DNA of 64,000 bases from Eledone cirrhosa (GCA_964016885.1 OZ024744.1:36332001-36396000), one strand, 5' to 3'. Positions 19,985-47,000 are shown, counted from the first letter of the stretch. Notes: generated by a model not told the origin, from the sequence alone. Program-made: numbers and translations.

Positions 19985-20000
19985 CTATATCTATCTATCC

Positions 20001-20068
<68 letters not shown>
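19985..20068. repeat. (ATCT)n microsatellite
   Basis: Direct tandem repeat, 5' flank of the Tx1 array. Confidence 0.97.
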
Positions 20069-21971: not shown

Positions 21972-22092
21972 TGCCCCCACACTTCCACAAACCACCACCC
22001 CACCCAACAACCCATCCCCCACCCTAATGGAAATTGTGCAGCCCGATACCCGGGACGCAGAGAGGTAAGTGCCTTTTCTCTTCACCACCAAC

Positions 22093-25000
22093 ATGGCTAT
22101 GCTAAGAGTAGGCTGTTTAAATGCGCGTGGCCTGGGCTCAACTTGGAAGCAAGCAATGCTTCTAAATGACCCCAGGTCACAACGTATAGATGTGATGGTT
22201 ATTTGCGAGGCCCGGATCAGCAACGTGCGACAGCTGGCCCCCACCTTTGATGACTTTGAGATGCACGCATCTCTCTGTCAGCCCGGAGGTGGGGGTGGAG
22301 TTGTCGTTCTGCTGCAAAAACATCTGGGTCTCGCAACAGAGATGGTACATTTGGACCCGGAGGGTCGACTAGTGGTTCTGGACCTTGGCAGTGGTAAAGG
22401 CGGAGCGTTTAGGTTGGTAGCCGCCTACGGCCCTTTCGGGTCAATGCGGCCGGACTTCTTCCATCGTCTGGAGACTTTTCTGGGGACGTCCCGCTCCTTG
22501 CTATTAGTGGGGGACTGGAATGGTATCCTAGATGCACGCTGGGACTACGTAGGGGCCTGCCCCGATAGAGAGGGGTGTAATACCCTCAAAGGGTTAATCG
22601 GTCGATTTGACCTGGCCGATAGATATCGACTAGATTTTCCGACTGCGCCAACCTAGACTTGGGCAAACCGTAGCGGATCATCTAGGTCGTACCTAGATAG
22701 GTTCTTAGTTAGAATTAAGGATAAGGACTTTTTAAGTTGTCCAAAAATGCGCATGGTTGGCTATTCAGACCACAAATTAGTGACCTGCATGGTCAACCTT
22801 GACAGAACTCATAGACAGGGCCCCGGTTACTGGAAGCTCAACTTGTCCTTGCCGGCAAGTAGAGCCTACAGGAATCGGATTAGTACGTTAGTTAAGGAAC
22901 GGTTGACGGGAGCGATCGTCAACAGCAGGTGGTGGGTATCTCTAAAGAGAGAGATTAGAGTAGTCTCGATAGAATTTAGTAAGGTTCTAGCTGCGGATAG
23001 GAATAGGAAGGAAAGGGAGCTAATAGATAGAGTAGAAGAGGCAATTAGAAGCGGCGACGTGGCCAGAGTGCTAGCGTCGAGAACGGCTTTGAGCCAGTTT
23101 TTCGACGCGAAGCACGAAGGCTGCGTTGTCCGAAGTAAAATACGTGCTCTAGGGAACGAGGGGACCAAAGCTGTTGGCTGGACCCGCGTGACAGAGGCCA
23201 ACAGTGGAACTAAATCCACCATCCGGTCTTTGCGAGACCTGGATGGACGGGCGATTCTTGAGCCTAAGCAGATGTGTGAGGCCTTTCAAAGGCACTTTGC
23301 CCGACTGTTCGGGAGGGGCGGGGAGCCGGTTGGGAACGTGGACTTCGGTCCATACCTCGACGGCCTGCCGTGCCTCTCGGACAGGGAGGCGAAGTCCTGC
23401 GAGGAGCCGATTTCGGCCGCTGAGATAGAGGACGTGCTGAGCCAATGCGGCAAACGCAAATCCCCGGGTCTCGATGGTCTTCCTTACGAATTATATCTAG
23501 CTATGCCGAACTTGTTCCCCGATCTCCTCGAGGCGGTCTACTGCAACTGGCAACAGAACGGGAGAATTCCCTGTACTGTGACCAAGGGCGTAGTCACGCT
23601 AGTGAGGAAGGACGAGAACAAGGGGGACGAAATAAGTAACTTCAGGCCCATAACTCTGCTAAATACAGAGTTACAGATTTTGGCCAAGGTGCTAGCAAAG
23701 AGGTTGGCGCTTGTCGTGGGCAACCTGGTGGGAGATGCGCAGACATGCGCTATCCCGTCCAGGTCCATCCATGACAACCTCCACCTCATGCGATACATCA
23801 TAGAGAGGGTTGGGAACGAACCCGGCTTTGGTGGGGCTCTGATCAACTTGGATCAATCTAAGGCGTTCGATAGGGTCGACCATGGTTACCTGGATGCGGT
23901 GCTAGCGGCGGCAGGCTTCGGACCCGTTTTCAGGGGCTGGATCACTGCTATGCACAGCAGCCGCATCTGCTCTAGGGTCAAGGTGAATGGCTACCTCTCG
24001 GAGCCGTTCAAAAACGCGCGGTCCATCCGACAAGGGTGCCCTCTCTCCTCCCTTCTGTATGTGTTGACTCTCGAGCCACTACTGCGGAAGTTGGAGTTGT
24101 TGCAGGGCATCCCTTTGGAACCGGGATTGCGGAAAGCGGTGTCGGCCTACGCCGATGGCGTGACAGTAATGGTGTCGACGGCCTCCGAAATCGAGGCGGT
24201 CGGCACCTTACTGGAGGAGTACGAAAAGTTCACAGGGGCTAAGCTGAACCGGGACAAGTCGATCGGTTTGCAACTCGGCACGTGGAGGGGCAGACCGATG
24301 CCCTCCGATGGCGTCGTCGGACGCTGGACGGAGGGCCCGGTGAAGTTGCTCGGGGTCTGGTTCGGACCGGACCTCCAGGTGGAGAAAAACTGGGCGGAGG
24401 TTACGAACAGGGTGTTTGCACTGACCCAGAAGTGGGCCAGTTGCAAACTATCCCTGAAAGGTCGGGCGGAGGTGGCGAACACCTACATAGCGTCCGTCAT
24501 CTACTACCGCCTGACCGTAGTGCCCTGCCCAAGGGAAACCCTCACCAAGATGGAGCGCGCGCTCTTCCAATTCCTTTGGAAGAGGCGGGCTCCTATGGTG
24601 AGGAGATCCATCTGCTGTCAACACCCTTCGAAAGGAGGGCTGGGGATGCCGTGGCTAATGATGCGTAAACACGCATTACGGCTACGGCACCTCTACGTAT
24701 TCCTCACCGGACAACCGGTGTGGGCCTCGTTTGTGAGACGAACCTTTCCCAGACTCGTCTCACTCACCGAGCTGCAATCCTGGGTCAAGCAAAGACCGAG
24801 AAAACTGGGCGCCTGGCACACTGAGTGTGCCCAGGCGCTCACCGCCCTCTGGCAGGTGGATCCGGTTATCAGTGGAGACTCCACCGCAACATTCTATAGA
24901 GAGCTGGTACGCAGCAGGTGCGACGACGCCCTCGGAGAAGCCCTAGACATGGAGGAGGACGAACTGGCCAGCCTGTTCGGTAGGACATTCAGCCCGGGAC

Positions 25001-25510
25001 CTATGGCCTGGCAGTGCTACCGAGGGGCTTTACCCGTTGGAGAAAGGCTCTACAGACACGGGCGCCCGGGTAGGGACCCCGCCAAAAAGATCTGTCCCAG
25101 ATGCGTGTGCGACGAGGAAACCGTTGCACACGCATTGGTACACTGCTCGGGCGTAGCCGATCTGTGGGGCTATGTCGAGCAAACTGCTGTCAAGGGTGGG
25201 ACCGATCCGGTTGACCACCGAGTCTATTATAATGATCAAGCCTCCTCCCCCCTTCAAAGATGAAGCAGAGGCGGTGTTTCTGTGCGTAATAGCCATGGCG
25301 AAAGAGGTTGTATGGTGGACGCGTCTGAAAGGACTGAGGTCAGGCACCTTTCTCTCTGGCCAACAACTGGTCCGTTTCTTCCGATATCATTTCGGAAGAA
25401 GGATCAGGATGGAGAGAGAGGTGCTGCACCCCAGCCGTTTCTATGAAAGATGGGTGAAAGTGGCGAGAATGGCCCGTGTGAATGGGCCTTCACTCTACAT
25501 CAGACTATAG
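22093..25510 (+). pseudogene. Tx1 ORF2 (APE endonuclease, RT, CCHC), disrupted
   Basis: LNARGL, ICE, GDWN, SYLDR, SDH; KSPGLDG, NFRPITLLN, DQSKAFD, RQGCPLS, YADG (YADD mutated); CPRC..EETVAHALVHC. Stop at 22654-22656, small deletion ~25003, frameshift ~25180. Confidence 0.93.
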
Positions 25511-25773
25511 GTGAGGAAGATGAAAGACCAAGGGAGCACTCCTTCTCTGTGCTCCTGAGGAGAAGGGTTGCACACTTTTTTCGGGGGTGTGTGCGACCCC
25601 CAAGGCGCCTCCTCTCTATTGAGGATTTTGTTATAAATTTTATTTTTTGTTATATCTTATTTTATTTTTATATTTTGTTATTGCCTCCTCCTTATTGAGG
25701 ACGCCTTTTTGTGTAAACTCCCCCCTTTGTACTTGTCCCACTTTTGATGCCCTAGTGGCAAATAAAAGAAACA

Positions 25774-25828
<55 letters not shown>

Positions 25829-25831
<3 letters not shown>

Positions 25832-26090
25832 CTCTCTATATCAGCCTGTAGATTGAGGAAAAGGAGGAGGAGAGGAAAGGAGTACAAGCTCTTCGTACTC
25901 CTGGAGATGAGGGTTGCACATTTTTTTCGGGGGTATGTGTTACCCATATAAACTGTCTCCCTCTATTGGGGAAAATCGACTAACTTTTAAATTCCATCTG
26001 TGATAACATTTTACACGTTTTTATTGTATGTAAACTTCCCCCTTTGTATTTGTCCCCTTCTTTTGTGCCCCTGTGGCTAATAAAGAAATA
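25829..26090 (+). mobile_element. Severely 5'-truncated Tx1 copy (last ORF2 codons plus 3' UTR)
   Basis: Nearly identical to the 3' ends of T2 (30946-31211) and T3 (36878-37140). (ATCT)n on both sides. Confidence 0.92.
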
Positions 26091-26172
<82 letters not shown>

Positions 26173-26398
26173 GCTGTCGTCTGTTCTACAGTGTGGATGT
26201 AATTCACTTCGCGCAGAAGTTTTGTTCAAATTTATTGCAGAAATTTTGTGAGTTCAAATTTAATTTTGATACAATTGTGTAGCTTGACCCCCCGTCTGAA
26301 CTGTCAGGCGGTGGGTCAGCTCATCTTTACCCCTCCTAGAGGTGAAAAACCTGTTTTAAAAAATTTTGTGGCAAAAAAATTTCAATCGACTAACAGAA

Positions 26399-27501
26399 AT
26401 GTTAAACGCAGCGAACGAAAATAGTGGTGGGGGGACAGCGGTAAAGGTTGTAAGCTCGCACGCTTTAGTCCCCCCTTCCTTCCCAACTAACGTCATAGAG
26501 AAGGAAGGAAAAATTAAAATAAAAACAGACGAATGGAGGGGAGAAGGCCATCCTGCCATATCTGTGCAGGCAGAGGGCACCTGAAGGCCGCTTGTCCCCA
26601 ACTCAACAAAAAGAAAACCCTGCTACCAACACCAGCTCCACCACCACCACCACAACAGATAAACAAACAACAAAACTCAGTCCCACCCAACACGTCCCTC
26701 AGTAAAACTACACCACCACCACAACACAAACAGTCACAACACATTACCCCAAAACAAAATACAGGCCCACCCAACCCCTCACTCAATAAAACAACACAAC
26801 CACCGCAGACACAACACACAACACAGTCTAACATAGTGACATCCATCTCCCCCACAAAGAAAACCAACACGGAAACATTACCAGCAAACATACCTCTTCC
26901 CTCCAACACTGAAGATAACCCAACGAATTCGGAGGAAGAAACGGAGTCCTTCAGACAGATTAAAAGGAAAACAAGAAAACATGTGCAAAACACACAAGGC
27001 CAAACAACCCCCACCCAAATCTCAACACAATCCAACAAAACAGAAAACACCCCTCCAGCAACAAACAAAACCAAACCTGCCCCTCCCCTCTTCGAAACAC
27101 TCACACCATCCGAAAAAAAGACATTACACTATACTTACATCAACAGAAACAATAATAAATTAAATGAACTCATATACAATAATCCTTCGGTACAAACCGA
27201 AGGTGTAAACTTTGTTTCCTCAGAAAACTACCCACATTTAAAATTAATAAAGATCCCAATGAACCTCTACCAAAAACTAAAAAAGGATTTTAAGGAGGAC
27301 GTAGGACCACCCTCTGTCAAACCCATAAACCGCGTCCTACCAAAAAGCTTTCCCCCTCCCCTTCCCCTCCCCAACACAACTCCAAACACCCCAACCCCAC
27401 CACACACTGACGACCCCACACCACCACAAGACACCCCTTCACCCAACACCCCCGACCCCATGGAAGTCGTGCAACCCGAACCCCGGGAAGCGGAAAGGTA
27501 G
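26399..27501 (+). pseudogene. T2 ORF1 with central deletion and frameshift
   Basis: The N-terminus MLNAANENSGGGTAVKV resembles T3 MNAASNDNGGGEAVRL, then goes directly to EGRRPSCHICAGRGHLKAACP. Confidence 0.85.
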
Positions 27502-27534
27502 GTCTCTACACTCTCCTTTGGCTCTGCCGCCCAC

Positions 27535-30500
27535 ATGGATGTGTTAAGAGTAGGATGTTTGAATGCACGTGGCCTGGGCTCAACTTGGAAGCAAGCAAAG
27601 CTTCTAAATGACCTCAGGTCATGTAGTATAAATGTAATGGTTATCTGTGAGACTCGAATCAGCGTCGTGCGGCAGCTGGCCCCCACCTTCGATGACTTTG
27701 AGGTGCATGCATCTCTCTGTCAACCTGGAGGTGGGGGTGGGGTTGTCGTACTGCTGCAAAAACACCTGGGTCTTGCCGTACAGGTTGTGCACTCGGACCC
27801 GGAGGGTCGTTTGTTGGTGCTAGACGTTGGCAGTAGTGAAAGTGCGGCCTTGAGACTGGTCGCCGTCTACTTCCCTTTCGGAGCTGAACGGCCCGACTTC
27901 TTCCAGCGTTTGGAGACTTTTCTGGGAACGTCGCGTTCCCTGCTTCTAGCGGAGGATTGGAATGACATCCTAGATGCACGTTGGGACTATGCAAGGAGCA
28001 TGTCCTAATAGAGGGGGTGTAACAGCCTCAAGAGGTTACTCGACCGTTTTAACTTGGTCGATAGATATCGACTAGATTTTCCAACTGTGCCTACCTGGAC
28101 TTGGAGAAACCACAGTGGTCAATCTAGATCGTACTTAGATAGATTCTTAGTTAGAAGTAAGGATAGGGACATATTAAGCTGTCCAGAAATGCGCACGGTT
28201 GGCTACACGGATCACAAATTAGTGACCTGCGTAGTCAATCTCGAGAAAACACATAAACAGGGTCCCGGTTCTGGAAACTTAATTTGTCTTTACCGGCAAA
28301 AGAGACTTACAGAAACCGGATTAGCAGATTAGTTAAGGAGAGGTTGACGGGTGCAATCGTCAACAACCGATGGTGGGCATCTCTCAAAAGAGAGATTAGA
28401 ACAGAATCAATAAGTTATAGCAAGATGTTAGCTGCCGATAGGAATAGAAACGAGAAAGAATTAACAGGTAAATTAGAAGAGGCAATCAAGAGCGAAGATG
28501 TGGCCAGAGTGCTGGCATCGAGGACGGCCTTGAACCAGTTTTTCGATGCAAAGCACGAAGGCTGCGTCATTCGAAGTAAAATACGTGCTCTAGGTAATGA
28601 GGGGGCCAAAGCCGTTGGCTGGGACCGCGTGACAGAAGCTAAGAGTGGAAATCGATCCACCATCCGGTCGTTGCAAGACGAAGATGGATGGGTGATCCGG
28701 GAGCCTAAGCAGATGTGCGAGGCCTTTCAAAGACACTTTGCCCGATTGTTCGGGGGAGGCGAGGGTCCGGGCGGGGGCGTGGATTTCGGTCCATACCTCG
28801 ACGGCCTACCGCGTCTCTCGAGCGAAGAGGCAGAGTCCTGCGAGGGACCAATCTCGGCTGATGAGATCGGAGATGCGCTGAGCCAATGCAGCAGACGCAA
28901 ATCTCCAGGTCTCGATGGTATACCTTACGAACTTTATTTAGCAATGCCGGTCTTCTTCTCCGAACTCCTCGAAGCGGTCTACTGCAATTGGCAGCAGAAC
29001 GGGAGAATTCCCAGTTCTGTAACCGGGGGCGTGGTCACACTAATCAGGAAGGACGAGAATAAGGGGGATGACATAGGCAACTTCCGGCCCATAACTCTGC
29101 TAAACACAGTTACAGATTTTGGCCAAGGTGTTGGCAAAGAGGCTGGCGCTTGTCGTCGAGAACCTGGTGGGAGAAGCGCAGACATGCGCAATCAGGACCA
29201 GGTCCATACACGACAACCTCCACCTCATGCGATACATCATAGAGAGGGTAGGGTGTAAACCCGGCTTCGGTGGGGCCCTGATCAACTTGGATCAGTCTAA
29301 GGCTTTCGATAGGGTTGACCATCGTTACCTGGATGCGGTGCTCGAGGCGGCAGGTTTCGGACCCGTGTTCAGGGGCTGGATTGCTGCAATGCACAACAGC
29401 AACATCTGCTCAAGGGTCAAGGTGAACGGCTACCTCTCGGAGCCGTTCCATATGACGCGATCCATTCGACAGGGATGCCCTCTCTCCTCCCTTCTGTACG
29501 TACTGACTCTCGAGCCACTACTGCGGAAGCTGGAGCTATTGCAGGGCATCCCTCTGGAACCGGGACTGCGGAAAGCGGCGTCGGCCTGCGCCGACGACGT
29601 GACAGTAATGGTGTCGAGCGCCTCGCAAATCGAGGAAGTCGGCACCTTACTAAAGGAATACGAAAGTCTCACAGGAGCGAAGCTGAACCGGGACAAGTCC
29701 ATGGGTTTGCAACTCGGATCGTGGAGAGGCAGACCGATGCTTTCCGACGGCGTCGTCGGACGCTGGACGGAAGGACCGGTAAAGCTGCTCGGGGTCTGGT
29801 TTGGTCCGGACCTCCAGGTGGAGAAGAACTGGAACGAAGTGACGGCCAAGGTGTTTGCACTCATCCAGAAGTGGGCCGAGTGCAAACCATCCTTGAAAGG
29901 TCGAGCGGAGGTTGCGAACACTTTTATAGCGTCCGCCATCTACTACCGCTTAACCGTCGTGCCTTGTCCAGCCAAAACGCTCGCCAAAATGGAGCGCGCG
30001 CTCTTCCGATTCCTTTGGAAGCGGCGGGCTCCTTTGGTGATAAGATCCATCTGCTGCCAACACCCTTCTAACGGAGGGCTGGGGATGCCGTGGTTGACGA
30101 TGCGCAAACACGCGCTCAGGCTGCGGCATCTCTACGTATTCCTCACCGGACAACCGGTGTGGGCCCCGTTCGTGAGGCGAGCCTTCCCACGACTCGTCTC
30201 GCTGACCGAGCTGCAGTCCTGGGTCAAGCAAAGACCGAGGAAAATGGGCGACTGGCACATCGAATGTGCTCAGGCGCTCACAGCCCTCTGGCAGGCGGAC
30301 CCGGCGATCAGTGGAGACTCCACTTCGTCATTCTATAGAGGGTTGGTCCGCAGCAAGTGCGACGACGCGCTCGGTGAAACTCTAGGCGTAAAGGAAGATG
30401 AACTGGCCAGTCTGTTCGGTAGGACCTTCCGCCCGGGACTGATGGACAACTTCCAAAAGCCCCTGGCCTGGCAGTGCTACCGAGGAGCTCTACCAGTTCG

Positions 30501-30969
30501 AGACAAGCTCTACAGACATGGGCGCCCGGGCAGGGACCCCGCAAAAAAGATCTGTCCGAGGTGCGTGCGAGACGAAGAAACCGTCGCGCACGCATTCATA
30601 CACTGCCCGGGTGTCACTGACCTGTGGGGATATGTAGAACGACTATTGTCGCGGGTGGGACGAATCCAGTTGACCACCGAGTCCATTGTCATGATCAAAC
30701 CACCACCCTCCTTCAAAAACGAAGGAGAGGCGGTTTTCCTTTGTGTGATAGCTATAGCGAAAGAGGTTGTATGGTGGACAAGGTTGAAAGGGCTGAGGTC
30801 AGACACCTTTCTCTCCGGCCAACAACTGATTCTTTTTTTCAAATACCACTTTGGAAGAAGAATCAGGATGGAGAGAGAGGTGCTGTACCCCAACAAGTTT
30901 TATGAAAGGTGGGTGAAAGTGGCGAGAATGGCCCGAGTGAATGGGCCTTCTCTCTATATCAGCCTGTAG
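27535..30969 (+). pseudogene. T2 ORF2 (APE-RT-CCHC), frameshifted
   Basis: ORFs 27535-28008, 28054-28332, 28284-29258 and 29119-30969. YADD reads CADD. Confidence 0.93.
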
Positions 30970-31211
30970 GTTGAGGAAAAGGAGGAGGAGAGGAAAGGAG
31001 TACAATATCTTCGTACTCCTGGAGATGAGGGCTGCACATTTTTTTTCGTGGGTATGTGTTACCCATATAAACTGTCTCCCTCTTTTGGGGAAAATCGACT
31101 AACTTTTTAAATTCCATTTGTGATAACATTTTACACGTTTTTATTGTATGTAAACTTCCCCCCTTTGTATTTGTCCCCTTCTTTTGTGCACCTGTGGCTA
31201 ATAAAGAAATA

Positions 31212-31252
<41 letters not shown>

Positions 31253-31476
31253 CTTTATCAGTCGTGTGTCACTTCGCGGAGAAGTTTCCGTTAATTTATG
31301 TAAGGAAAAAACGTGAGTTTTTAGTTCAATTTTATATCATTGTGTAACTTGACCACCCGTCTGGACCTTCAGGTGGTGGTCAACTCATTTTCGCCCCTTC
31401 AGGGGCGGAATATCCATTAAAAAAATTTTTCTCCATCGAATCTTGGAAAAAAATATTGTAAAATTTTGATTACGTT

Positions 31477-33432
31477 ATGAACGCTGCGTCCAACGATAAT
31501 GGTGGTGGAGAGGCGGTAAGACTACAAAGCTCGCAGTCAACAACGTCTTCTTCACTAGATACTATAGAGATGGAAAGACAAAATGAAAATAAAAAAACGA
31601 ATTCACATCCAAACAACACAAATGACACCAAACAGCTCAATGACAACAAAAATAACAGCAAAACCAATAATGATGATAAAAGCAACAATGATAACAACAA
31701 CAAAGAAAAAAATAAAGACAACGCCAATAACACCAGCATCAAAGACAACAACAACACCAAGGAAAATACGGATGATACCAACATCGGTGACAACAAGAAT
31801 AACAACAAGAATAACAACAATAATGATAACACCACCAATACGGATTCCACAAAGAAACCAAAAATCTCCTTTGCGGAGAAAGTTCAAAAGAAAGAACAAT
31901 TGATTTATCTCGACATAACAAATGCTGAACACCTTTTAAAGGACGCTAAGAGATATGTCACCTTCGAAAAAAATGGTGCTTTCAGCATCAATTCTCCGGT
32001 AGAAATTCGCAAGGAAACTGCTCTCAAAACGATAGTTTTTAGGACAGTTTCCAATTCTACCCGAAAACCAGTCCAACTGTCACAGAAAGATATTGAACTG
32101 GTTTTCAAAGATTCAATGAATGATATTGCATTCATTCAAAGAAGCAAACTTTTTGGGAGTATTTCGGTACTGATGAAGGATCAATTGACGGCCCAAAATT
32201 ACTCTGTGTCGCCAATTGTACCCAACCTGTACACCTTTTTCCCTACATACATGGGAAAAAGGACACAAAAGATCAGAATCACAAGTGTCACACCAAAGGT
32301 GAACATATGGTGGATACTGTGCGGCTTCATCAATTTTGATGAAGACAGAATACTGTCAGTAGGCAAGTCCCCCAGAGATGTATTCAATGGGACTAGCATT
32401 GAAGTTCTGGTGCAAATGAGCCCAGAGCGAATAGCTATGATCCCACAGCGTGTACTCCTGGACGGACTCACCTACATAAACCTTTCGGTTGAGGGTAGGC
32501 GGCCTTCATGTTACCATTGCTTTAGCAGGGGTCACCTGAGGGCTTCCTGTCCTAAACTAATGAACCAAAAAAAGGCTCTTCTGCCGACACCCATCAAAAC
32601 AACACAACCACCAACACCACCACAACAACAACAACACCAACACACAAAAATAACCACAACAAACACAGTCCCACCCAACCCCACTCCACCTAAAACCACT
32701 GCAAAATCACATACAGACACGACAGCTCCCCAAGACATACCCCTCCCCAATCACACAGACGATACAACAGATGAGGCTATCTCGCCATCACCCAGTGAAG
32801 ACGAGGGAGAACCCCATCGCTCGAAAAGAAAGAAAAGACATCACAAAAGCAAAAAACCAGCAAACACTACCACAAACATACAACCACCAACACAAACAAC
32901 AAAAATATCACAAACAAAACCCCCACCTCCTGAAAACAAAATACCTACAACAAAACGAAAGCACACACAAGAACTACAGACAAAAGCAAACACAACACAA
33001 GAAAATTACACTTACACTTACATAAACACTGAAAACAAAACACTAATGGAGACCATCACGAACGACCCTTCGGTTTTCACCGAAGGGTCGTTCGTGATGG
33101 TCTCCGTTAGTGTTTTGTTTTCAGTGAAAACTTTCGCCCACTCTATTAAAAATAGCAAAAAACTGAACCTAAAACTGATTAGGGTCCCTATACAAACTTA
33201 TAGGTCCCTAAAAGAAACATTTGAGAAGGATGTGGGGAATTCCTGCGTGAAACCACTCAACCGTGTCCTTCTCAAATGCCTCCCCACCCCAGACACCCTC
33301 ATCCCACCAGACCCCACCCCACCAAACATCTGCGTCCCCACCCCGCCGGAAACCACCACCCATCCAGACAACCCCTCCAACACCCCCATGGAAATCGTGC
33401 GGCCTGGTCCCCAGGAGGCGAAGGGTGAGTGA
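31477..33432 (+). CDS. T3 ORF1 protein, 651 aa (Asn/Asp-rich region, central conserved domain, CCHC knuckle, Pro/Thr-rich linker)
   Basis: Open frame; EGRRPSCYHCFSRGHLRASCP; KRKKR basic patch. Confidence 0.9.
   Translation: MNAASNDNGGGEAVRLQSSQSTTSSSLDTIEMERQNENKKTNSHPNNTNDTKQLNDNKNNSKTNNDDKSNNDNNNKEKNKDNANNTSIKDNNNTKENTDDTNIGDNKNNNKNNNNNDNTTNTDSTKKPKISFAEKVQKKEQLIYLDITNAEHLLKDAKRYVTFEKNGAFSINSPVEIRKETALKTIVFRTVSNSTRKPVQLSQKDIELVFKDSMNDIAFIQRSKLFGSISVLMKDQLTAQNYSVSPIVPNLYTFFPTYMGKRTQKIRITSVTPKVNIWWILCGFINFDEDRILSVGKSPRDVFNGTSIEVLVQMSPERIAMIPQRVLLDGLTYINLSVEGRRPSCYHCFSRGHLRASCPKLMNQKKALLPTPIKTTQPPTPPQQQQHQHTKITTTNTVPPNPTPPKTTAKSHTDTTAPQDIPLPNHTDDTTDEAISPSPSEDEGEPHRSKRKKRHHKSKKPANTTTNIQPPTQTTKISQTKPPPPENKIPTTKRKHTQELQTKANTTQENYTYTYINTENKTLMETITNDPSVFTEGSFVMVSVSVLFSVKTFAHSIKNSKKLNLKLIRVPIQTYRSLKETFEKDVGNSCVKPLNRVLLKCLPTPDTLIPPDPTPPNICVPTPPETTTHPDNPSNTPMEIVRPGPQEAKGE
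33027..33126. repeat. 100-bp palindrome (48-bp arms, 4-nt loop) inside T3 ORF1
   Basis: cactgaaaac...cccttcggt TTTC accgaaggg...gttttcagtg, one mismatch. Confidence 0.95.
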
Positions 33433-33465
33433 TCTCTTTTCCTCTTTTAACTTTTCAGCACCAAC

Positions 33466-36400
33466 ATGGCCAATATAAGAGTTGGATGTGTGAACGTACG
33501 CGGCCTGGGGATGCCCTGGAAACAGGGCAAACTCTTAAACGACCTCAGGTCGCACAGTTTGGATGTGGTAGCCATTTGCGAGTCCAGGATCCACGGCGAG
33601 CGACAGCTGGCCCCCATCTTCGATGACTTTGAGATCTACGCATCTCTCTGTCAACCGGGGGGTGGGGGCGGAGTTGCCGTTTTGCTGCGGAAACACCTGG
33701 GCCTCGTAACACAGACGGTACATCTGGACTCGGAGGGTCGACTGGTGGTCCTAGACGTTGACGGTAGTGAAGGTGGAGCGTTCAGGCTGGTGGCCGCATA
33801 TGCCCCATCCGGGACACCGCGGCCAGACTTCTTCAAACGTCTAGAGACTTTTCTGGGAACGTCCCGCTCCTTGCTTTTAGTGGGGGACTGGAATGGAATC
33901 CTAGATGCACGTATGGACTATGTGGGAGCATGTCCCGATAAAGGGGGGTGTAACAGCCTCAAACAGTTAATCGACCGATTTGACCTGGCCGATAGATATC
34001 GACTAGATTTTCCGACTGCGCCACTGTGGACGTGGAGTAATCGTAGCGGAACATCTAGATCGTACCTAGATAGGGTTCTAGTTAGAAATAAAGATAGGGA
34101 CATGTTAAGCTGTCCACAAATGTTCATGGTTGCCTATTCAGATCACAAACTAGTGACCTGCATGGCCAACCTTGATAGAACCCATAGACAAGGACCCGGC
34201 TACTGGAAGCTGAACTTGTCGTTACCGACAAGCAAAGCCTACAGTAGACGGATTAGCACTTTAGTTAAACAGCACTTGACAGGGGCCATTGTCAACAACA
34301 GATGGTGGTACTCTCTCAAGAGGGCAGTTAGATTAGACTCGATAGCTTTTAGTAAAGAATTAGCGTTAGATAGAAATAGAACCGAGAAGGAACTGGTAGA
34401 TAAAGTAGAAGAGGCAATTAGAAGTGGCAACGTAGCCAGCGTGCTAGCAACGAGAACGGCCTTGGACCAGTTCTTCGACGCAAAGCACGAGGGCTGCGTT
34501 GTCAGAAGCAAAATACGTGCTCTGGGAAACGAGGGAGCCAAAGCTGTTAGCTGGGCCCGAGTGACGGAGGCAAAAAGTGGCAACAAGTCCACGATTCGGT
34601 CTTTGAAGGACCAAAACGGACGCGTGATACGTGAGCCGAAGCAGATGTGTGCGGCTTTTCAGTGGCACTTTGCTCGGCTGTTCGGGGGGAGCGGCGCGCC
34701 GGGAGAGGCTATGGATTTCGGTCCATACCTCGACGGCCTACCGCGACTCTCGGACAGCGAGGCGAAGTTCTGCGAAAAGCCGATTTCAGCCACTGAGATA
34801 GGGGACGCGCTGAGCCAATGCGGCAAACGCAAATCTCCAGGTCTCGACGGTCTACCCTACGAATTTTACGTAGCAATGCCGGACTTATTCTCCGGTCTCC
34901 TGGAAGCGGTCTACTGCAACTGGCAACAGAACGGGAGAATTCCCAGTTCTGTAACCGGGGGCGTGGTCACACTAATCAGGAAGGACGAGAATAAGGGGGA
35001 TGACATAGGCAACTTCCGGCCCATAACTCTGCTAAACACAGTTACAGATTTTAGCCAAGGTGTTGGCAAAGAGGCTGGCGCTTGTCGTCGAGAACCTGGT
35101 GGGAGAAGCGCAGACATGCGCAATCCCGACCAGGTCCATACACGACAACCTCCACCTCATGCGATACATCATAGAGAGGGTAGGGTGTAAACCCGGCTTC
35201 GGTGGGGCCCTGATCAACTTGGATCAGTCTAAGGCTTTTGATAGGGTTGACCATCGTTACCTGGATGCGGTGCTCGAGGCGGCAGGCTTTGGACCCGTGT
35301 TCAGGGGCTGGATTGCTGCAATGCACAACAGCAACATCTGCTCAAGGGTCAAGGTGAACGGTTACCTCTCGGAGCCGTTCCATATTACGCGATCCATTCG
35401 ACAGGGATGCCCTCTCTCCTCCCTTCTGTACGTACTGACTCTCGAGCCACTACTGCGGAAGCTGGAGCTATTGCAGGGCATCCCTCTGGAACCGGGACTG
35501 CGGAAAGCAGCATCGGCCTACGCCGACGACGTGACAGTAATGGTGTCGAGCGCCTCGCAAATCGAGGAAGTCGGCACCTTACTGAAGGAATACGAAAGTC
35601 TCACAGGAGCGAAGCTGAACCGGGACAAGTCCATCGGTTTGCAACTCGGATCGTGGAGAGGCAGACCGATGCCTTCCAATGGTGTCGTCGGACGCTGGAC
35701 GGAAGGACCGGTAAAGCTGCTCGGGGTCTGGTTTGGTCCGGACCTCCAGGTGGAGAAGAATTGGAACGAAGTGACGGCCAAGGTGTTTGCACTCACCCAG
35801 AAGTGGGCCGAGTGCAAACTATCCTTGAAAGGTCGAGCGGAGGTAGCGAACACTTTTATAGCGTCCGCCATCTACTACCGCTTGACCGTCGTGCCTTGTC
35901 CAGCCAAAACGCTCGCCAAAATGGAGCGCGCGCTCTTCCGATTCCTTTGGAAGAGGCGGGCTCCTTTGGTGATAAGATCCATCTGCTGCCAACACCCTTC
36001 TAACGGAGGGCTGGGGATGCCGTGGTTGACGATGCGCAAACACGCGCTCAGGCTGCGGCATCTCTACGTATTCCTCACCGGACAACCGGTGTGGGCCCCG
36101 TTCGTGAGGCGAGCCTTCCCACGACTCGTCTCCATGACCGAGCTGCAGTCCTGGGTCAAGCAGAGACCGAGGAAAATGGGCGACTGGCACATCGAATGTG
36201 CTCAGGCGCTCACAGCCCTCTGGCAGGCGGACCCGGAGATCAGTGGAGACTCCACTTCGTCATTCTATAGAGGGTTGGTCCGCAGCAAGTGCGACGACGC
36301 GCTCGGTGAAACTCTAGGCGTAGAGGAAGATGAACTGGCCAGTCTGTTCGGTAGGACCTTCCGCCCGGGACCGATGGACAACTTCCAAAAGTCCCTGGCC

Positions 36401-36901
36401 TGGCAGTGCTACCGAGGAGCTCTACCAGTTCGAGACAAGCTCTACAGACATGGGCGCCCGGGCAGGGACCCTGCAAAAAAGATCTGTCCGAGGTGCGTGC
36501 GAGACGAAGAAACCGTCGCGCACGCATTCATACACTGCCCGGGCGTCACTGACCTGTGGGGATATGTAGAACGACTATTGTCGCGGGTGGGACCAATCCA
36601 GTTGACCACCGAGTCCATTGTCATGATCAAACCACCACCCTCCTTCAAAAACGAAGGAGAGGCGGTTTTCCTTTGTGTGATAGCTATAGCGAAAGAGGTT
36701 GTATGGTGGACAAGGTTGAAAGGGCTGAGGTCAGACACCTTTCTCTCCGGCCAACAACTGATTCTTTTTTTCAAATACCACTTTGGAAGAAGAATCAGGA
36801 TGGAGAGAGAGGTGCTGTACCCCAACAAGTTTTATGAAAGGTGGGTGAAAGTGGCGAGAATGGCCCAAGTGAATGGGCCTTCTCTCTATATCAGCCTGTA
36901 G
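33466..36901 (+). pseudogene. T3 ORF2 (APE-RT-CCHC) with one frameshift at ~35040
   Basis: ORFs 33466-35190 and 35060-36901; all main catalytic motifs are readable. Confidence 0.94.
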
Positions 36902-37153
36902 GTTGAGGAAAAGGAGGAGGAGAGGAAAGGAGTACAAGCTCTTCGTACTCCTGGAGATGAGGGTTGCACATATTTTTCGGGGGTATGTGTTACCCATATA
37001 AACTGTCTCCCTCTATTGGGGAAAATCGACTAACTTTTAAATTCCATCTGTGATAACATTTTACACGTTTTCATTGTATGTAAACTTCCCCCTTTGTATT
37101 TGTCCCCTTCTTTTGTGCCCCTGTGGCTAATAAAGAAATATATCTATCTATCT

Positions 37154-39625
<2,472 letters not shown>

Positions 39626-39697
39626 TAAACGCGCGTCACTAACCAATAAACGTATTGAAGGCGTAACCATTCATCCCTCTATCATGATAATACTCTC

Positions 39698-39890: not shown

Positions 39891-40093
39891 TAATACACTC
39901 TGTCTAGCTCTACACCTCGATACTGACGTGAACTTAAATATTGAATGCTCACCCGGGTGAACCTACAGTAATTCCACGTTCTCACCCGTCTATTTTTCAC
40001 TCCCACACTTGTACCTTCAATATTTTTATGTAAAGACATTTTTTCCAATTATATTCCGCCCGTCCCCTCAATCTATCTAATTTCTCATTCTTT

Positions 40094-40127
40094 CTTCTGA
40101 TGAAGGATTACCGTCCGAAACGTTAAG
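40094..40127 (+). ncRNA. Minimal type-I hammerhead ribozyme motif (Penelope-like-element type)
   Basis: ctt-CTGATGA-a-gga-ttaccg-tcc-GAAACGTT-aag: intact core, 3-bp helices I and II, palindromic ACGT helix III. Confidence 0.6.
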
Positions 40128-40207
40128 TCCCACTGCCTGTTATATCAAGCGTTAACCTAACATATCCTTTCCATATACTGTACCGATTGTGTTGTTATTT
40201 CTGTTTC

Positions 40208-40260
<53 letters not shown>

Positions 40261-40265
<5 letters not shown>

Positions 40266-40817
40266 AAATATGGAGAAAAATACTGCAGGTAGCGCATGGA
40301 TAACATGTAATAAAATGAGTCCCTCATCAGTGATTTGCCGAAGATCATAGATATTTCATTGCATTAAAAATCATATACCTCACGTCGGTGCAATAATAAC
40401 CAAAATAAGTTATTAGGACAATTAAAACGCGTAAAGCGAGTGAGACAGGAGAACAACAAAGAGTATAGCTAACCGTAGGGGAAAGAAACAAGCTTCAAAA
40501 ATTATTCTGTTTAGCATAAGCTAGGTGAATATATGAGCGCTTTAGAAAAAAGACCTGACACGAACGAGGGCCATGTGAGAAGAGAGAAAAATATAGCTTT
40601 CGTCGTGTACAGGATGAAGCGAAGAGAGGAGAAACAGTGAGTGAGTGAAAGTGTGAGGAAGAGCTAACTGACATGACAGAGGGGGCGAAAGAAAGTAGGA
40701 GAAACAGAGAGAATGGGGGAACAGTAAGAGAGAGAGAGAAAAACACAGAATCGCAGTTTGGGTAAATATATGTAATAAAATATGGAGAAAAATACTGCAG
40801 GTAGCGCATGGATAACA
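40261..40817. repeat. 45-bp perfect direct repeat (40261-40305 / 40773-40817)
   Basis: taataaaatatggagaaaaatactgcaggtagcgcatggataaca occurs twice. Confidence 0.9.
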
Positions 40818-41569
40818 GAAATTTACTTCGACCACATACCCCCAACGAACTTTACACGGCACACAGACATCCAATGAAATAAACTAAAGCTCAATAAATC
40901 AACTAAACCAATAACTGATTGACCTAATCAAAAATCTATGCTGCTTAACGAATCGATAATCTCGATCACACCAACAGTTAAGCCACAAGCTCAGCCAATA
41001 AATGGCCAAATAAAATGACCAATTGAAACGGAATATAAATTCACATTTAAGAAGATGAAATCACCGGCCATCTTAAGAAACCATAGGAAGAGGCGACATC
41101 ATAACTATAAATATCACTTGAAACCAAAACCAGATCAAAGCAATCCGGAAAATGTTAAAAGAGAAAATTTAAAATGAAGTAAATTCAAATCAGAAACTTA
41201 TTACAATCGAAAGAAGTATAAACATTAACTGAAAGGTTTAAAACATAACACATTAAACGTTATTGAAATATTATTTCACCCGAACTACCTCCTGTGTAAT
41301 TCTGTTCAATGGAGAACCAGAGTGTAAAACAATAGAAACAGCCACCTGAGTCATACACCTGTTTTGGGCGGAAGTGGCTAGGGGCTCTAACTCTGTCTGC
41401 TCCCGTCATCGACAATATGACGCCTACATGAGAAAATTTAGAGTACTCACTTTACAAAATGAAATGAAATATAAATATGGATTTTATATATTCAATTATT
41501 ATTAACATATTGATATGAGCATGAACCTTTACGATATGCAGTATTACCAGTAACGGACCATATAATTTC

Positions 41570-42847
41570 ATATGTATGTATGCATGCATGTGTAGATATG
41601 GATGTTATTGTATGTGTGGATCTGTATGTTTTGAGTTGTATGTGTGCATGTGTATATCCTTTGCTTCTGTACATGTGTATATGCAGTTATTAGATGCAAC
41701 ATTTTTGGAATGTTTTACATATTTTTACTGTTCCATTAATGGATTGTACTTGTAATTTCCTAACTAGTTGTGTTCTTTCTGTTCCTGTGAAGCCTAGCTT
41801 CTCAAGATTTGTATTGAGGCAGTTACTAACATATCACAGTGCCCCACTAATCACAGGCATAAATCTGAAGGTATTGTCAGGGTGGAGTATCTGCAGATTC
41901 CTTATCAGTTCTGCATAAATATTCTCCTTTCCACTAATCTTTGATATTGTATTGGCATCTGCTGGGCAGCTAATTTCCACTACTGTCCATGCTTTCTTCT
42001 CCCTGTCCCATATCATAATATCTGGTCTGTTATGCCTGCATTTTATTGGGGTTTTTACTGGAACATTCCACCAGTACTCTTTCATATTATATATGTGTAT
42101 GTCTTCCACATTGCTGTAGCTTTTAATGTGTTTATTATCGAGGCTATCTTTTTTAAGAACTGCATTGTACAGTGTTTTTGCCACTACATCATGCCTCATA
42201 GGTAGATAGTACCGCGATGATATCTTTGGAGAGCTGCTGATGTCATGGGTGATATCCTCCATGTTAGTTCTGCAGAGTCTGCACTTATTATCACATCTAG
42301 GTGCTTCACCTGCATCCCTATCGCTTTTGTGAATCAGGTATTTCGTGTTAATCTCCTGTTCATGGATTGCAAAAGTGGGAGCCAATATAGCTGTTGTTGG
42401 TCCAAGATAAACTACTTTCCTTATCTATATTACTTTCACTCTGGAGCTTCTTGGCAAAATATCAATGCATGATTTTTTGCTGATAAGCATGAAGTTTTTC
42501 ATCCATGGATTCACTGCGGTACTGCTGAGCGACATACCTGGGTGTGAGTTTTTTTTTATTATCACACGGAATATCTCTCGAGGAGTTCCTTCCCAACTCT
42601 CATGATCTTATCTGTTTCATGCAGACACACTTGCTCGAGAGACGGGCTCCTACGCTTCAAGGTTCGTAGATGTTGTCGGAGGGATATGATGCGATATTCA
42701 AATGTTTTCTGGACTGATGTTAGGCCTCGGCCTCCCTGCTTACGTTTCAAGTAAAGGCGGTCTATGTCACTGTTGATGTGGAAGTTTCCGGTATTGTTCA
42801 GTATTTTTCGAGTTCCAACATCAACTGCTCGGATTTCGTCTATCGTC
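41570..42847 (-). mobile_element. R4/Dong-like family A fragment (thumb, CCHC, RLE, part of 3' UTR)
   Basis: ORF 41834-42385 has CRLC, RHD and NRPDIMIWD..VEISCPAD..KENIY. Homologous to 1-745. The 5' junction abuts (TATG)n. Confidence 0.92.
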
Positions 42848-42950
42848 GTATGTATGTATGTATGTATGTATGTATGTATGTATGTATGTATGTATGTATG
42901 TATGTATGTATGTATGTATGTATGTATGTATGTTTGTATGTATATATATG

Positions 42951-43555
42951 TCAGGTCACCATTTGGTGCTACTGGTAACATGTATCCCAATACAACCTGT
43001 GTCATGGTCGGGTCGTTGGCGACTAAACTGGCAACCCCACCAAGGTTTCTTGGTGAGGAGGGTGACTTTGGACATCCTGCAGGACTAAAAACAAAACCTG
43101 TCAAAGGGTAAAAGAGCTCTTAAGAGTCAATGGCCATCCAAAATCACCGGGAGAGATGACCCCTTAGGTTTTGTCAAGGCAGAATTCTAGGAGAATGAAA
43201 ACTCTGATATAACACCTGCAACCCTGATGGTATCCAATGATGTTGACTTGTTCTTCTTTTTGGTAAATATCATCTTGGTTAAGAGAGTGGGACTGGCTTT
43301 GTGCAGCGCCTTTGCTCACTATAAAAGCTTCACGGCACAGGCATTGCTTTATATCTGGAGATCTCTCTGCACTTGTCGTCACATGGTACCATGGGCCCAG
43401 CACTATGTGTCAGTAATAGTCACAAGTGTAGTGTTTGTACCAGAGTTTTCAAGTCGCTGGCTGGACTAAAAAGTCACACTTGTTCAACGCATTGGTAGGG
43501 GTTCTCCTACATGGATATAAAGTAGTGGCCGTACTCGAAAACGAGTTGGCAGCCA

Positions 43556-43558
<3 letters not shown>
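42951..43558 (+). mobile_element. Non-autonomous RTE-derived element, copy c
   Basis: Colinear with copy a; followed by (TA)n. Confidence 0.85.
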
Positions 43559-43605
<47 letters not shown>

Positions 43606-43749
43606 AAGTGAGTAGCGTGTGTGTGTTTGTTTGTATGTATGAGTGTTGCTGCGCGCGCGCGTATGTATGCGTGTGTGTGCGCGCGTATGTATGCGCGTGT
43701 GTGTATGTCGTACGTAGAAGTGTCAATAAGTGAGTTTTTTTTGTTTTTT

Positions 43750-44083
43750 TTTGCGCGGGGACATAGAAATAATTGGGCTGGATGCCCGATCGCGCAGTTA
43801 AACCACTGGGAGTGAAGAACCCCTAGCCCTTGTCAGGGCATTCTTCTAGGAGAAGGCATCTCAGGAAACTGGGTTAACTCCGACATAAAACCTGCGGCTC
43901 AGTAGTTACCGATGATGTTGATCTTTTCTTCTTTTCGGGTTATAGCTACTGTCGCTCAGAGAGTGGGATTGGCTCAGTGCACAGTCTTTCCTCACTTTAA
44001 AAATATTCGTCACGCACAGGCATTGCACGAGTGCATTAATAATTATTAATAGTGTAATATTATTATTATTATTATTATTATTA
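43750..44083 (+). mobile_element. 5' UTR of the autonomous RTE element, separated from its ORF by a Tx1 insertion
   Basis: Shares ccctagcccttgtca, ttctaggagaagg, gatgatgttga, agagagtggga.tggct and gcacaggcattgc with the short RTE elements. Ends in (ATT)n, which resumes at 47864 just before the RTE ORF. Confidence 0.7.
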
Positions 44084-47000
44084 CCACATCAAGACTTTTA
44101 AAGGGGTTCCCAAAAGAAACCCCACCAACCATGGAGGTCGAACCACCCGACCTTCACAAGACCCGGGAGGTAAGTAAACCTTCCCTCTCTCTCTCTTAGC
44201 TTACCAATATGGCCATATTAAGAGTAGGAAGTTTAAATGTTCGCGGCCTGGGGTCACCCTGGAAGCAGGGTCGCCTGCTCAACGATCTCCGGTCGCTGGA
44301 AATGGATGTGATTGCCGTAAGCGAGACCAGAATTTCCGACACGCGCACACTAGCCCCCATTTTCGACGACTATCAGATCTTCGCATCTGTTAGCAGGCCG
44401 CGAATGGGGGTGGGGGGTGGGGTGGCAGTGCTGTTTAGGAAAGGACTGGATCTAGAGGTAAGGTCGATCTTCCAGGACCCGGACGGTAAGTTGGTGGTCT
44501 TGGATGTGAGCAGTAGCGAAGGTGGTGCCTTTAGACTGCTGGCCGTCTATGCCCCTACAGGGGCCGGACGACCTGACTTCTTTAGGCGTCTGGAGACCTT
44601 TCTGGGTACGTCTCGCCCTTTACTGTTAGCGGGGGCCTGGAATGGCATCTTAGACGCACGCTGGGATTGTGTGGGAGTAGCCGATAGGAGCGGGGGGTGC
44701 AAAAGCCTCAAGCACCTACTCAGCCAGTTCCAACTGTCTGACAGGTATCGACTAGATTTCCCCAATGTGCCAGTATGGACATGGACGAACCGAATGGGGT
44801 CATCTAGATCGTATATAGACAGGATCTTCATTAGGAAAATAGATAGAAATAGTGTGGGCTGTCCACTTTTTAAAACGGTTGCCTATTCAGATCACAAATT
44901 TGTGATCTGTACGGTCGACCTAGATAAAACACGTAGGTTATGACCTGGTTACTGGAAGCTGAAAATGTCATTTCCGGCACGTAAGGCTTACACGGAACGA
45001 GTCAACAATTTAGTTAAGCAAAGGTTGACAGGGGGGATCATCAACAACATATGGTGGGGGGCTCTCAAATGAGAGATTAGAGTAACTTCGATAGAGTTCA
45101 GCAAAGAACTAGCGTTAGTGAAAAATAGAAAGGAGGGGGAGCTGGTAGATAAGTTAGACGAGGCTATTTGTAGTGGCATCGCAACTGACATGCTAGCGGC
45201 GAGAATGGCATTAGACCATTTCTTCAATGCCAAACACGAATGTTGCATTGTCAGAGCTAAGGCGCGTGCGCTGAGAAACGAGGGAACTAAAGCTGTTCGA
45301 TGGGCCCACGTGGCGGAGGCGCAGCGTGGTAATAAAATCACAATTCAGTCTTTGGCGGACCGAGACGGACACGAGATAAGCGATTCCAAGCGGTTGTGTG
45401 AGTCCTTTCGCCAGCAGTTGCTCGGTTGTTCAGGGAGAGTGGCGAGTCAGAGAGAGTAGCGGATTTCAGTCCCTACCATGACGGCTTGCCGCGCATCTCG
45501 ACGGTCGACGCTGAGCGCTGCGAAAGGCCGATTACTTCAGCCGAAATTCAGGACGCCCTTGTCGGCTGCATGAGGCGTAAGTCACCCGGTTTGGATGGCC
45601 TGCCCTACGAGCTTTACGTAAATATGCCAGACTTGTTCTCCGAACTCCTCGAAGCACTTTACTGCAACTGGCAGCAGAATGGGAGTATTCCCAGTTCTGT
45701 GAGCAGGGGAGTGGTGACGCTGATAAGGAAAGACGAGAACAAGAGGGATACATTAGACAACTTCAGGCCCATAACACTGCTCAACACAGAGTTTAAGATG
45801 TTGACCAAGGTGTTAGCAAAGAGATTGGCGCTTGTCGTCGAGGATTTGGTTGGGGAGGCGCAAACTTGCGCAATCCCAGCCAGGTCCATACACGACAATC
45901 TCCACCTCATGCGATACATCATAGAGAGGGTAGGGTCTAAACCTGGCTTCGGTGGAGTACTGATCATTTTAGATCAATCGAAAGCATTCGATAGGGTCGA
46001 CCATCGGTATCTGGAGATTGTCCTCAAAGCAGCTGGCTTCGGCCCTGTCTTTAGAAGCTGGATCATTGCAATGTACAGCGGCACACGCTCGGTGGTCAAG
46101 GTTAATGGCCACCTCTCGGAACCATTTCGGCCCTCCCGATCGGTCCGTCAAGGGTGCCCTCTCTATTCCCTTCTGTACGTATTGACTCTCGAGCCTTTAC
46201 TGCGGAAGCTGGAGCTGTTGCAGGGCATCACCGTGATGGTGTCGAACACCTCAGAAATCGAGGTGGTCGGCACCTTATTGAAGGAATATGAAAGGTTGAC
46301 AGGAGCCAAACTTAACCCGGAAAAGTCGGTGGGATTGCAGCTCGGAACCTGGAGAGGCAGGCACATGCCGTCCAACAGCGTCGTGGGGCGCTGGACGGAC
46401 GGACCGGTAAAGTTGCTCCGGGTTTGGTTCGGACCAGACTTCCAGGTGGAAAAGAATTGGGACGAGGTAACGAGCAGAGTAGCCAGTCTCACCCAAAAAT
46501 GGGCTGGGAGGAAGCTATCACTGAAAGGTCGCGCGGAGTTGGCGAATGCGTACATCGTGTCCGTCATCTACTACCACCTAACCGTCGTGCCTTGCCCCCG
46601 TCCGCGCCTCGTCAAGTTGGAACGGTTCCTCTTCAAATTCTTGTGGAGGGGAAAGTTCCGTTTGTGAGGCGGTCCATCTGCTGCCAGCACCCTCTACGCG
46701 GAGGGCTGGGCATGCCGTGGCTAATGATGCGCAGACATGCGTTGAGGATGCGACATCTCCAGATATTCTGCCTCAATGGTGAACCGGTGTGGTCGCCGTT
46801 TATCAGACAGGTCTTTCCTCAGCTCATTTCTTTGACTGAGCTGCAGTCCTGGGTCAAGAAGAGACCGAGACTGAGTGACTGGCACCTGGAATGTTGCCAG
46901 GCACTCACTGCCCTCTACCAAGCGGGCAATGCGATCAGTGGAACTTCCACTCTCGAGTTCTATAGATGATTAGTGGTGGGCAAGTGCGATGACGCACTCG

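Follow-up and report, generated by a model that had tools for sequence, protein, structure and literature searches.

Why should a long interspersed nuclear element (LINE) keep what looks like a consensus 5' splice site (5'SS) at the very end of its first open reading frame (ORF1)? This question is raised by a 64,000-nucleotide stretch of the genome of Eledone cirrhosa (GCA_964016885.1 OZ024744.1:36332001-36396000; the whole stretch is called the window below), the plus strand of which carries four head-to-tail copies, T1 to T4, of one LINE superfamily. A preliminary description of this DNA had reported a donor-like motif at the ORF1 end of each copy and had proposed that a splicing- or U1-based switch controls the expression of ORF1 and ORF2. 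We compared the four copies with related copies elsewhere in the genome (~3.0 Gb). The donor-like motif is conserved in every lineage that we sampled, and we tentatively read it as a selected binding site for the U1 small nuclear ribonucleoprotein (snRNP). The motifs, and the candidate intron of T3, are located as follows.

22063..22070, plus strand: T1 motif AGGTAAGT; TAA at 22066-68 is the homologous ORF1 stop, and the spacer 22071-22092 has no AG
27496..27503, plus strand: T2 motif AGGTAGGT; TAG at 27499-501 is the ORF1 stop, and the spacer 27504-27534 has no AG
33423..33430, plus strand: T3 motif GGGTGAGT; the real stop is TGA at 33430-32
33425..33458, plus strand: candidate GT..AG segment of T3, 34 nt (TTTTAAC, TTTTCAG), whose removal would leave the ORF1 frame unconnected to the ORF2 ATG
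44168..44175, plus strand: T4 motif AGGTAAGT, within a 30-nt GT..AG segment at 44170-44199; TAG at 44197-99 is the in-frame ORF1 stop of the T4 subfamily

Read from the sequence, the motifs are AG/GTAAGT in T1, AG/GTAGGT in T2, GG/GTGAGT in T3 and AG/GTAAGT in T4, with the G at position +1 of the putative donor at 22065, 27498, 33425 and 44170, exactly where the preliminary description had placed them. Each is followed, again as described, by a pyrimidine tract (spacers 74-77% pyrimidine) and then by the ORF2 ATG, at 22093, 27535, 33466 and 44209, respectively. The overlap of motif and stop codon in T1 and T2 is also confirmed. The T2 TAG, at donor positions +2 to +4, is the true end of the ORF at 26533..27501, and the T1 TAA is the homologous stop in a conserved Met-Glu-Ile-Val frame (ORF1 of T1 itself breaks earlier, at 21971). 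In T3 the corresponding TGA had been described as one base out of register, and the real stop indeed lies at +6 to +8. Because relatives of T3 with one more A read AAG AGG TGA, with the stop in register at +2 to +4, this one-base shift is a change within the T3 lineage. The ORF1 frame of the T4 relatives L035, L048 and L067 also places the stop at +6 to +8, so that the motif is retained in other reading frames (GGT GAG TGA in T3; GGT AAG TAA in these three copies). In the T4 subfamily proper (169 copies), ORF1 passes through the motif and ends at the TAG that had earlier been taken for a splice acceptor. The ORF1 stop and the ORF2 ATG share one frame in all four window copies, 27, 36, 36 and 12 nt apart.

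A single GTRAGT means little, because 2.3 such hexamers are expected by chance in a 5.7 kb element. The question is therefore whether the motif is kept at the homologous place in copies that were collected without regard to it. Copies were chosen by the codons at the start of ORF2 alone, and the motif was no part of the selection. A first ORF2-start pattern gave 4786 genome matches, against 0 for the reversed control; we took 30 of these loci and added 12 for rarer variants. When T1-T4 and a single one of the identical T3 copies were included, this first sample fell into 13 clusters at 6% divergence. A second ORF2 pattern, which required another Gly codon, gave 181 matches, from which 30 further loci were taken. 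These added the deeper lineages L077/L093/L103, L101, L087/L102, L078/L086/L089, L076 and L105. The lineages are 10-37% apart across the first 900 nt of ORF2.

With 30 identical T3 copies excluded, AGGTRRGT is present in 61 of 76 loci and GTRRGT only in another 6. The remaining 9 have neither, and all of them are single mutated, truncated or rearranged copies. AG/GTRRGT thus stands at the ORF1 end in every sampled lineage. When 12 lineage representatives are anchored on the motif and compared from -20 to +18, the only invariant positions are A-2, G-1, G+1, T+2, G+5 and T+6; positions +3 and +4 vary only between A and G. This invariance at a homologous place across lineages is far above background. 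In ORF2, 4-fold degenerate sites are invariant in 18 of 126 cases (0.14; 10 lineage representatives), and at this rate the chance that G+1 (the third base of AGG), G+5 and T+6 all stay fixed is ~0.003. Smaller sets gave 0.008 with 14 representatives and ~0.03 with 6. Among 798 windows of eight columns in the ORF2 coding sequence, just 2 match the same pattern of invariance (columns 1-4 and 7-8; 10 representatives). Dead copies do mutate at this place: T1-type copies include 14 with a base other than G at +1, versus 1488 with G. The earlier claim hinged on conservation that extends beyond the stop codon, and this is what we find: positions -2, -1, +1, +5 and +6 are kept in all sampled lineages. 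Since the motif is conserved beyond the stop across lineages, it appears to be under selection, and comparison of these copies indicates selective maintenance of the positions that would pair with U1.

One T4-like copy, L084 (G000 C1:126459661-126462692), lacks ~56 nt that extend from the tail of ORF1 to the leader of ORF2 and include the motif, and carries three other bases instead. Its ORF1 extends across the ORF2 ATG in another frame, the missing part is not bordered by GT..AG, and the copy is further rearranged downstream.

After confirming the donor-like motif, we turned to the question as to whether it belongs to an intron. The proposal of a splicing- or U1-based switch is upheld only in part: the motif is conserved beyond the stop codon and a U1-based role is compatible with the data, but the accompanying micro-intron has fared badly, as its AG is limited to some lineages, its removal breaks the frame in T3 and L067, and copies without the segment were not found. 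The AG dinucleotides themselves are present as reported in T3 (CAG at 33456-58, giving 34 nt) and in T4 (TAG at 44197-99, giving 30 nt); T1 has CAC at the matching position and T2 has no AG, and taking 30 nt out of T4 does preserve the frame. In the larger sample, the only copies to carry an AG between motif and ATG are the T3 group (TTTTAACTTTTCAG), T4, L071, L066, L067, L079 and L104, with CTCTTAG in T4-group members. No such AG precedes the ATG in T1, L042, L046, T2, family A (the L031 group), L055, L035, L060, L076, L086, L093, L101 or L102, nor in any other of the deeper lineages. GT..AG borders are thus confined to the T3 and T4 groups and are not shared by all lineages. The AG even looks derived, because both T1 and L055 carry CAC where T3 has CAG. 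Sampled copies with an AG before the ATG have candidate introns of 28-37 nt (24-28 nt in a few T4-type variants); these lengths fall below known metazoan intron sizes and by that general limit appear too short for spliceosome assembly. Removal of the segment would fuse ORF1 in frame to ORF2 in L052, L054, L062, L069 and T4, and would shift the frame in T3 and L067.

An intron that is spliced from the RNA of a retrotransposon may leave copies that precisely lack it, and the preliminary description had suggested a search for such copies. We found none among the T3-, T1- and T4-type copies examined. A pattern for the T3-group junction gave 0 genome matches. Copies with a base other than G at +1 (3 of 3 of T3 type, 14 of 14 of T1 type) all carry point or one-base changes, and none is without the segment. 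The segment is also kept in all 100 T4-type copies listed of the 169. In family A, an exon end followed by a base other than G gave 0 matches, a count whose denominator was not measured. Finally, the joint of 33424 to 33459 is absent from contigs of five sequencing runs, which are of unknown kind and show a DNA-like 5'-to-3' gradient of depth; no run recorded as RNA was found to contain the stretch. We conclude that the micro-intron is not supported as a general feature, and that the motif probably does not serve as donor for an intron whose removal fuses ORF1 to ORF2.

Three other ways of using the region were considered and rejected. Fusion by readthrough of the stop codon was dismissed because the relation between stop and ATG is not conserved: with frames read from the conserved ORF1-terminal ATG, the distance is a multiple of 3 in T1, L042, T2, family A, T3 and T4, and is not in L046, L055, L052, L054, L062, L035, L048 and L067. 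T3 also has a second in-frame TAA. The first AG inside ORF2 (TAAG, codons 4-5, in the donor's phase) would suit the lineages with the stop at +2 as a general acceptor; it fails in the L078/L086/L089 lineage and in T3, and the idea was post hoc. An intron from the donor to a CAG at the end of ORF2, which would yield an ORF1-only RNA, was discarded since this junction is absent among the copies without G at +1.

What, then, may the motif bind? The U1 genes of this genome begin with ATACTTACCTG, to which the motif is complementary. AGGTAAGT can form 8 contiguous base pairs with the U1 5' end, and 16 representatives match CAGGTAAGT at 6-8 of 9 positions. In all 16, the 12 nt upstream of the motif are 67-92% purine and the spacer downstream is 69-79% pyrimidine. 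The composition of this spacer is conserved; its sequence and length (19-41 nt) vary. A purine-rich stretch followed by a pyrimidine-rich one is the usual setting of an exon end. The U1 small nuclear RNA (snRNA) genes themselves occur in tandem arrays with a period of 2674 nt (G000 C2:180973544-180995099; C1128:1476-49773).

The explanation that we favour, with well under even confidence, is that AGGTRRGT, which spans the last ORF1 codon and the stop, is a selected binding site for U1 snRNP on unspliced element RNA, used without productive splicing. We infer both the binding and its benefit. Bound U1 might shield the long (5.8 kb) intronless transcript from premature cleavage and polyadenylation, or it might set the nuclear residence of the RNA and the level of its export. 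Translation of ORF2 would in that case use the same unspliced bicistronic RNA and begin at a strong-context ATG 24-46 nt past the stop. Intronless mRNAs are reported to be depleted of the consensus 5'SS motif, which inhibits export (PMC4380460). That the element keeps the motif despite such a cost suggests a use.

Several points weigh against U1 binding. The same cost can be turned around: an unspliced consensus 5'SS is reported to retain mRNA in the nucleus, which should harm the element (PMC4380460). The bases at +3 and +4 take exactly the forms required by TAA, TAG and TGA and are explained by the stop alone, leaving just three to four positions whose base is fixed by no coding or termination requirement. 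The lineages were all drawn from one genome, and the test followed, rather than preceded, the discovery of the motif. Some lineages match U1 less well, with GTAGGT in T2, family A, L055 and L076, and GGGTGAGT in T3. The purine-rich ORF1 end is predicted to form a local hairpin with the pyrimidine tract, which could hide the site. The proposed protection from polyadenylation has no specific support, and polyadenylation-signal (PAS) hexamers are few (5 in T3, 3 in T1).

We regard a translational alternative as possible and as the next most probable. Here the context of ORF1 termination (AGG, stop, GU), the AUG-free pyrimidine spacer, perhaps a hairpin, and the conserved strong-context ACCAACATGG would promote reinitiation at ORF2, and the likeness to a splice site would be coincidental. 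Termination followed by reinitiation is the accepted route to ORF2 in human L1. In the present family the stop is always within the motif or immediately downstream of it, the ORF2 ATG follows 24-46 nt past the stop in a conserved CCA(A/G)CATGG context, and most representatives are predicted to form a hairpin that holds the stop in its loop. The hairpin scores are weak, however, with z-scores between +1.2 and -1.5 in 11 of 13 representatives, and we rejected a conserved hairpin as a feature in its own right, given that the prediction is indistinguishable from the effect of purine-then-pyrimidine composition. A fixed stop context is also hard to square with a stop that moves to +2, +6 or (in T4) +28 while the motif stays unchanged. 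We know of no reinitiation signal of this sequence, and the chance that five positions constrained by an unrelated function would spell the splice consensus is ~0.001. In another reading the motif would be a genuine splice donor, as originally proposed, switching between ORF1-only and other products. It would be joined either to distant acceptors or to the nearby AG, which in the T3 and T4 groups would create a micro-intron of 28-37 nt and, in some subfamilies, a fusion. The motif is near consensus and lies between a purine-rich stretch and a pyrimidine tract; TTTTAAC TTTTCAG in the T3 group and CTCTCTTAG in the T4 subfamily directly precede the ORF2 leader; removal of the segment would give in-frame fusions to the ORF2 ATG in L052, L054, L062, L069 and T4; and the spacer is free of AG in the remaining lineages. 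We nevertheless consider a genuine donor unlikely. An AG before the ATG is confined to the T3 and T4 groups, the segments (28-37 nt, or 24-28 nt in few T4-type copies) are short for metazoan introns, and removal shifts the frame in L067 and in T3, the youngest and most uniform subfamily. Cis-preference is known for L1. If ORF2 were made from spliced RNA, such a preference would make intron-less copies the main progeny, and we saw neither a copy without the segment among those examined nor the 33424-to-33459 joint in contigs of the five runs.

A version restricted to T3-related copies and T4 is more doubtful still, and we give it very little credence: the 28-37 nt GT..AG segment would there be a real but inefficiently spliced micro-intron that makes a gag-pol-like ORF1-ORF2 fusion, and the donor elsewhere would be the older U1-dependent signal from which it evolved. 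It is also improbable, slightly more so than a genuine donor in general, that the motif has no function beyond the stop, its flanking bases being shared by descent and unchanged by chance. Only three to four positions are informative, they come from a single genome, the motif was noticed before testing, and neighbouring bases are likewise conserved within each of the T1, T3 and T4 groups. Yet the 4-fold sites put the chance of such fixation at ~0.003 and 2 of 798 coding windows match; no column at -20 to -3 or at +7 to +18 is invariant across the 12 lineages, and the five additional conserved bases correspond exactly to the splice consensus. The remaining probability we leave to a function that is not recognised here. 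Evasion of the HUSH complex by intron mimicry was a further candidate for the benefit of U1 binding. It is disfavoured by the reported findings that protection from HUSH is independent of the 5' splice site and is not conferred by a small artificial intron (PMC8770142).

One of the closest known systems is U1 telescripting. U1 at 5'SS-like sites suppresses premature cleavage and polyadenylation, which would account for selective upkeep of a U1-binding sequence in a 5.8 kb intronless RNA polymerase II (Pol II) transcript with no need for an acceptor. In contrast to that mechanism, for which a single site is unusual, the element has one site with few PAS hexamers near it. Introns kept in retroelements are known from Ogre long terminal repeat elements, from retroviral env splicing and from the splice sites of zebrafish ZfL2-1. 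These resemble the original proposal in that splicing regulates the ratio of two products. Unlike the present case, in which the acceptor is not conserved and the segment measures 28-37 nt, they have introns of normal size and RNA evidence. The donors of human L1, and the spliced integrated retrotransposed elements (SpIREs) that result from them, offer another parallel (PMC5860796): conserved, functional-looking donors lie on the sense strand of a LINE, splicing harms the element, and copies of spliced RNA can be searched for as fossils. Those sites differ in lying in the 5' untranslated region (UTR) and at the start of ORF1 and in having left spliced copies, whereas the motif of the present family lies across the ORF1 stop, and the copies examined include none that is spliced. 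The 5'SS nuclear retention and decay element (PMC4380460) is the same consensus in RNA without a usable intron, and U1-dependent effects would be expected without splicing in both cases. In contrast to its depletion from the intronless mRNAs described there, the motif appears to be maintained by selection in an intronless element here.

Splice signals in LINEs and the 5'SS motif as a signal for RNA fate are therefore already known. The open-access literature that we searched contains, in the parts available, no description of a selected consensus donor that overlaps the ORF1 stop in an element of Tx1 or L1 type. The RNAs of LINEs are long Pol II transcripts that lack introns, and their means of escaping premature 3'-end formation and nuclear surveillance are only partly understood. 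In this family, which looks recently active, a consensus 5'SS motif of a kind normally removed from intronless mRNAs appears to be under selection at the ORF1 stop. The motif is a concrete and mutable cis-element with which U1-dependent control of a retrotransposon can be tested, and it illustrates that the stop codon of a gene can lie embedded in a second, nucleotide-level signal. The weight of the finding is moderate, as it comes from the DNA sequence of one genome.

To which family do these elements belong? The ORF2 product of T3 contains the parts typical of the L1 superfamily, namely an apurinic-type endonuclease (APE), a reverse transcriptase (RT) and a zinc-binding C-terminus (Pfam Exo_endo_phos 4.6e-12, RVT_1 1.3e-17, zf-RVT 9.5e-07). 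A tblastn search with a homologue of 1155 residues gave an alignment over residues 3-1142 of that homologue, and the closest ORF2 matches in the database are unnamed and 36-39% identical. ORF1 (651 residues in T3) encodes a low-complexity N-terminus, a CX2CX4HX4C (CCHC) zinc knuckle (CYHCFSRGHLRASC in T3, CYLCGTRGHLRAVC in T1) and a proline-rich tail. It matches no Pfam family at E<=0.01. A protein search with the whole of ORF1 returned no match, probably as its search words were drawn from the low-complexity N-terminus. In five of the longest ORF2 database matches (1552-1704 residues), ORF1 is not joined upstream of ORF2, and searches with the ORF2 N-terminus found no relatives among metagenome or viral contigs. 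The CCHC-bearing ORF1 and the association with microsatellites make membership in the Tx1 clade plausible. Target-specific LINEs of this clade include Kibi at (TC)n, Koshi at (TTC)n and crocodilian Tx1 elements at (TTCC)n or (TTTC)n (PMC4494074). Like those, the present elements combine APE and RT with a CCHC-bearing ORF1 and form head-to-tail arrays at microsatellites; unlike those described there, they are found at (TATC)n, a repeat that is also their own tail. The copies are arranged in the window as follows.

20069..25839, plus strand: T1, full-length type; ORF1 from 20274, frame broken near 21971; ORF2 from 22093; 3' UTR; (TATC)n tail at 25774-25839
25831..26172, plus strand: 3' UTR fragment, T3-like, 5'-truncated, ~260 nt, inserted in the (TATC)n tail of T1 and followed by its own (TATC)n
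26173..31252, plus strand: T2; ORF1 26533-27501; ORF2 from 27535, in three frame pieces; (TATC)n tail at 31212-31252
31253..37155, plus strand: T3; ORF1 31477-33432 (651 aa, CCHC knuckle); ORF2 33466-36901 (APE, RT, zf-RVT)
44086..47569, plus strand: T4, 5'-truncated at ~44086 and beginning after (ATT)n; last ORF1 codons; ORF2 from 44209, in three frame pieces

Each element terminates in GGCTAATAAAGAAATA and a (TATC)n repeat, straight after which the next element begins. The 3' UTR of T3 contains AATAAA and a short (TATC)n; T4 retains only ~26 codons of ORF1. Tracts of (TATC)n occupy 19988-20068, 25774-25839, 26091-26172, 31212-31252 and 37142-37155. The tail is thus a (TATC)n downstream of an AATAAA-containing 3' UTR, and head-to-tail arrays in (TATC)n with ~5.8 kb spacing are found genome-wide (e.g., G000 C1:4238331-4255762). 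The repeat flanks T1, T2, T3 and the 5'-truncated copy L044, which adjoins it directly. As their own tail is also (TATC)n, a choice of target is indistinguishable from homology to the tail, and the family may be of a (TATC)n-targeting or tail-homology-driven Tx1 type. Repeats of (ATGT)n, (TATC)n and (AT)n are dense throughout the region, which includes a 1.5 kb (AT)n tract at 38071-39623 between T3 and T4.

The T3 subfamily is very young and the most successful of the young ones: all 40 of the 40 scored copies have the same junction region (100% identity), and an exact 24-mer of T3 was found 301 times. Contigs from a second organism (run X4, organism B) show 0-1 mismatches to T3 per 148-277 nt; this young subfamily is therefore common to a very close relative. 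T2 and T3 share a frame break in ORF2 (29104-29108 in T2, 35036-35040 in T3). A programmed frameshift at this place was rejected, since most other genomic copies are 2 nt longer there. The 3' halves of T2 and T3 are nearly identical (2 differences in 180 nt), whereas their ORF1 ends and ORF2 starts come from lineages ~24% apart. It seems that neighbouring copies exchanged sequence or that T2 is a recombinant.

Two features of ORF1 deserve mention. Its N-terminus (31477-31900 in T3, 20274-20650 in T1) is a low-complexity region of ~120 residues, rich in Asn, Asp, Lys and Thr and encoded by CAA-type repeats; the plus strand of ORF1 is strongly A-rich and G-poor, and ORF2 has 53% GC. Near its other end, ~40 nt before the stop, a CCATGGA block (Met-Glu in the ORF1 frame; 33380-33395 in T3 and homologous places) is invariant in 15 representatives of the first sample and forms an in-frame ATG in good context.

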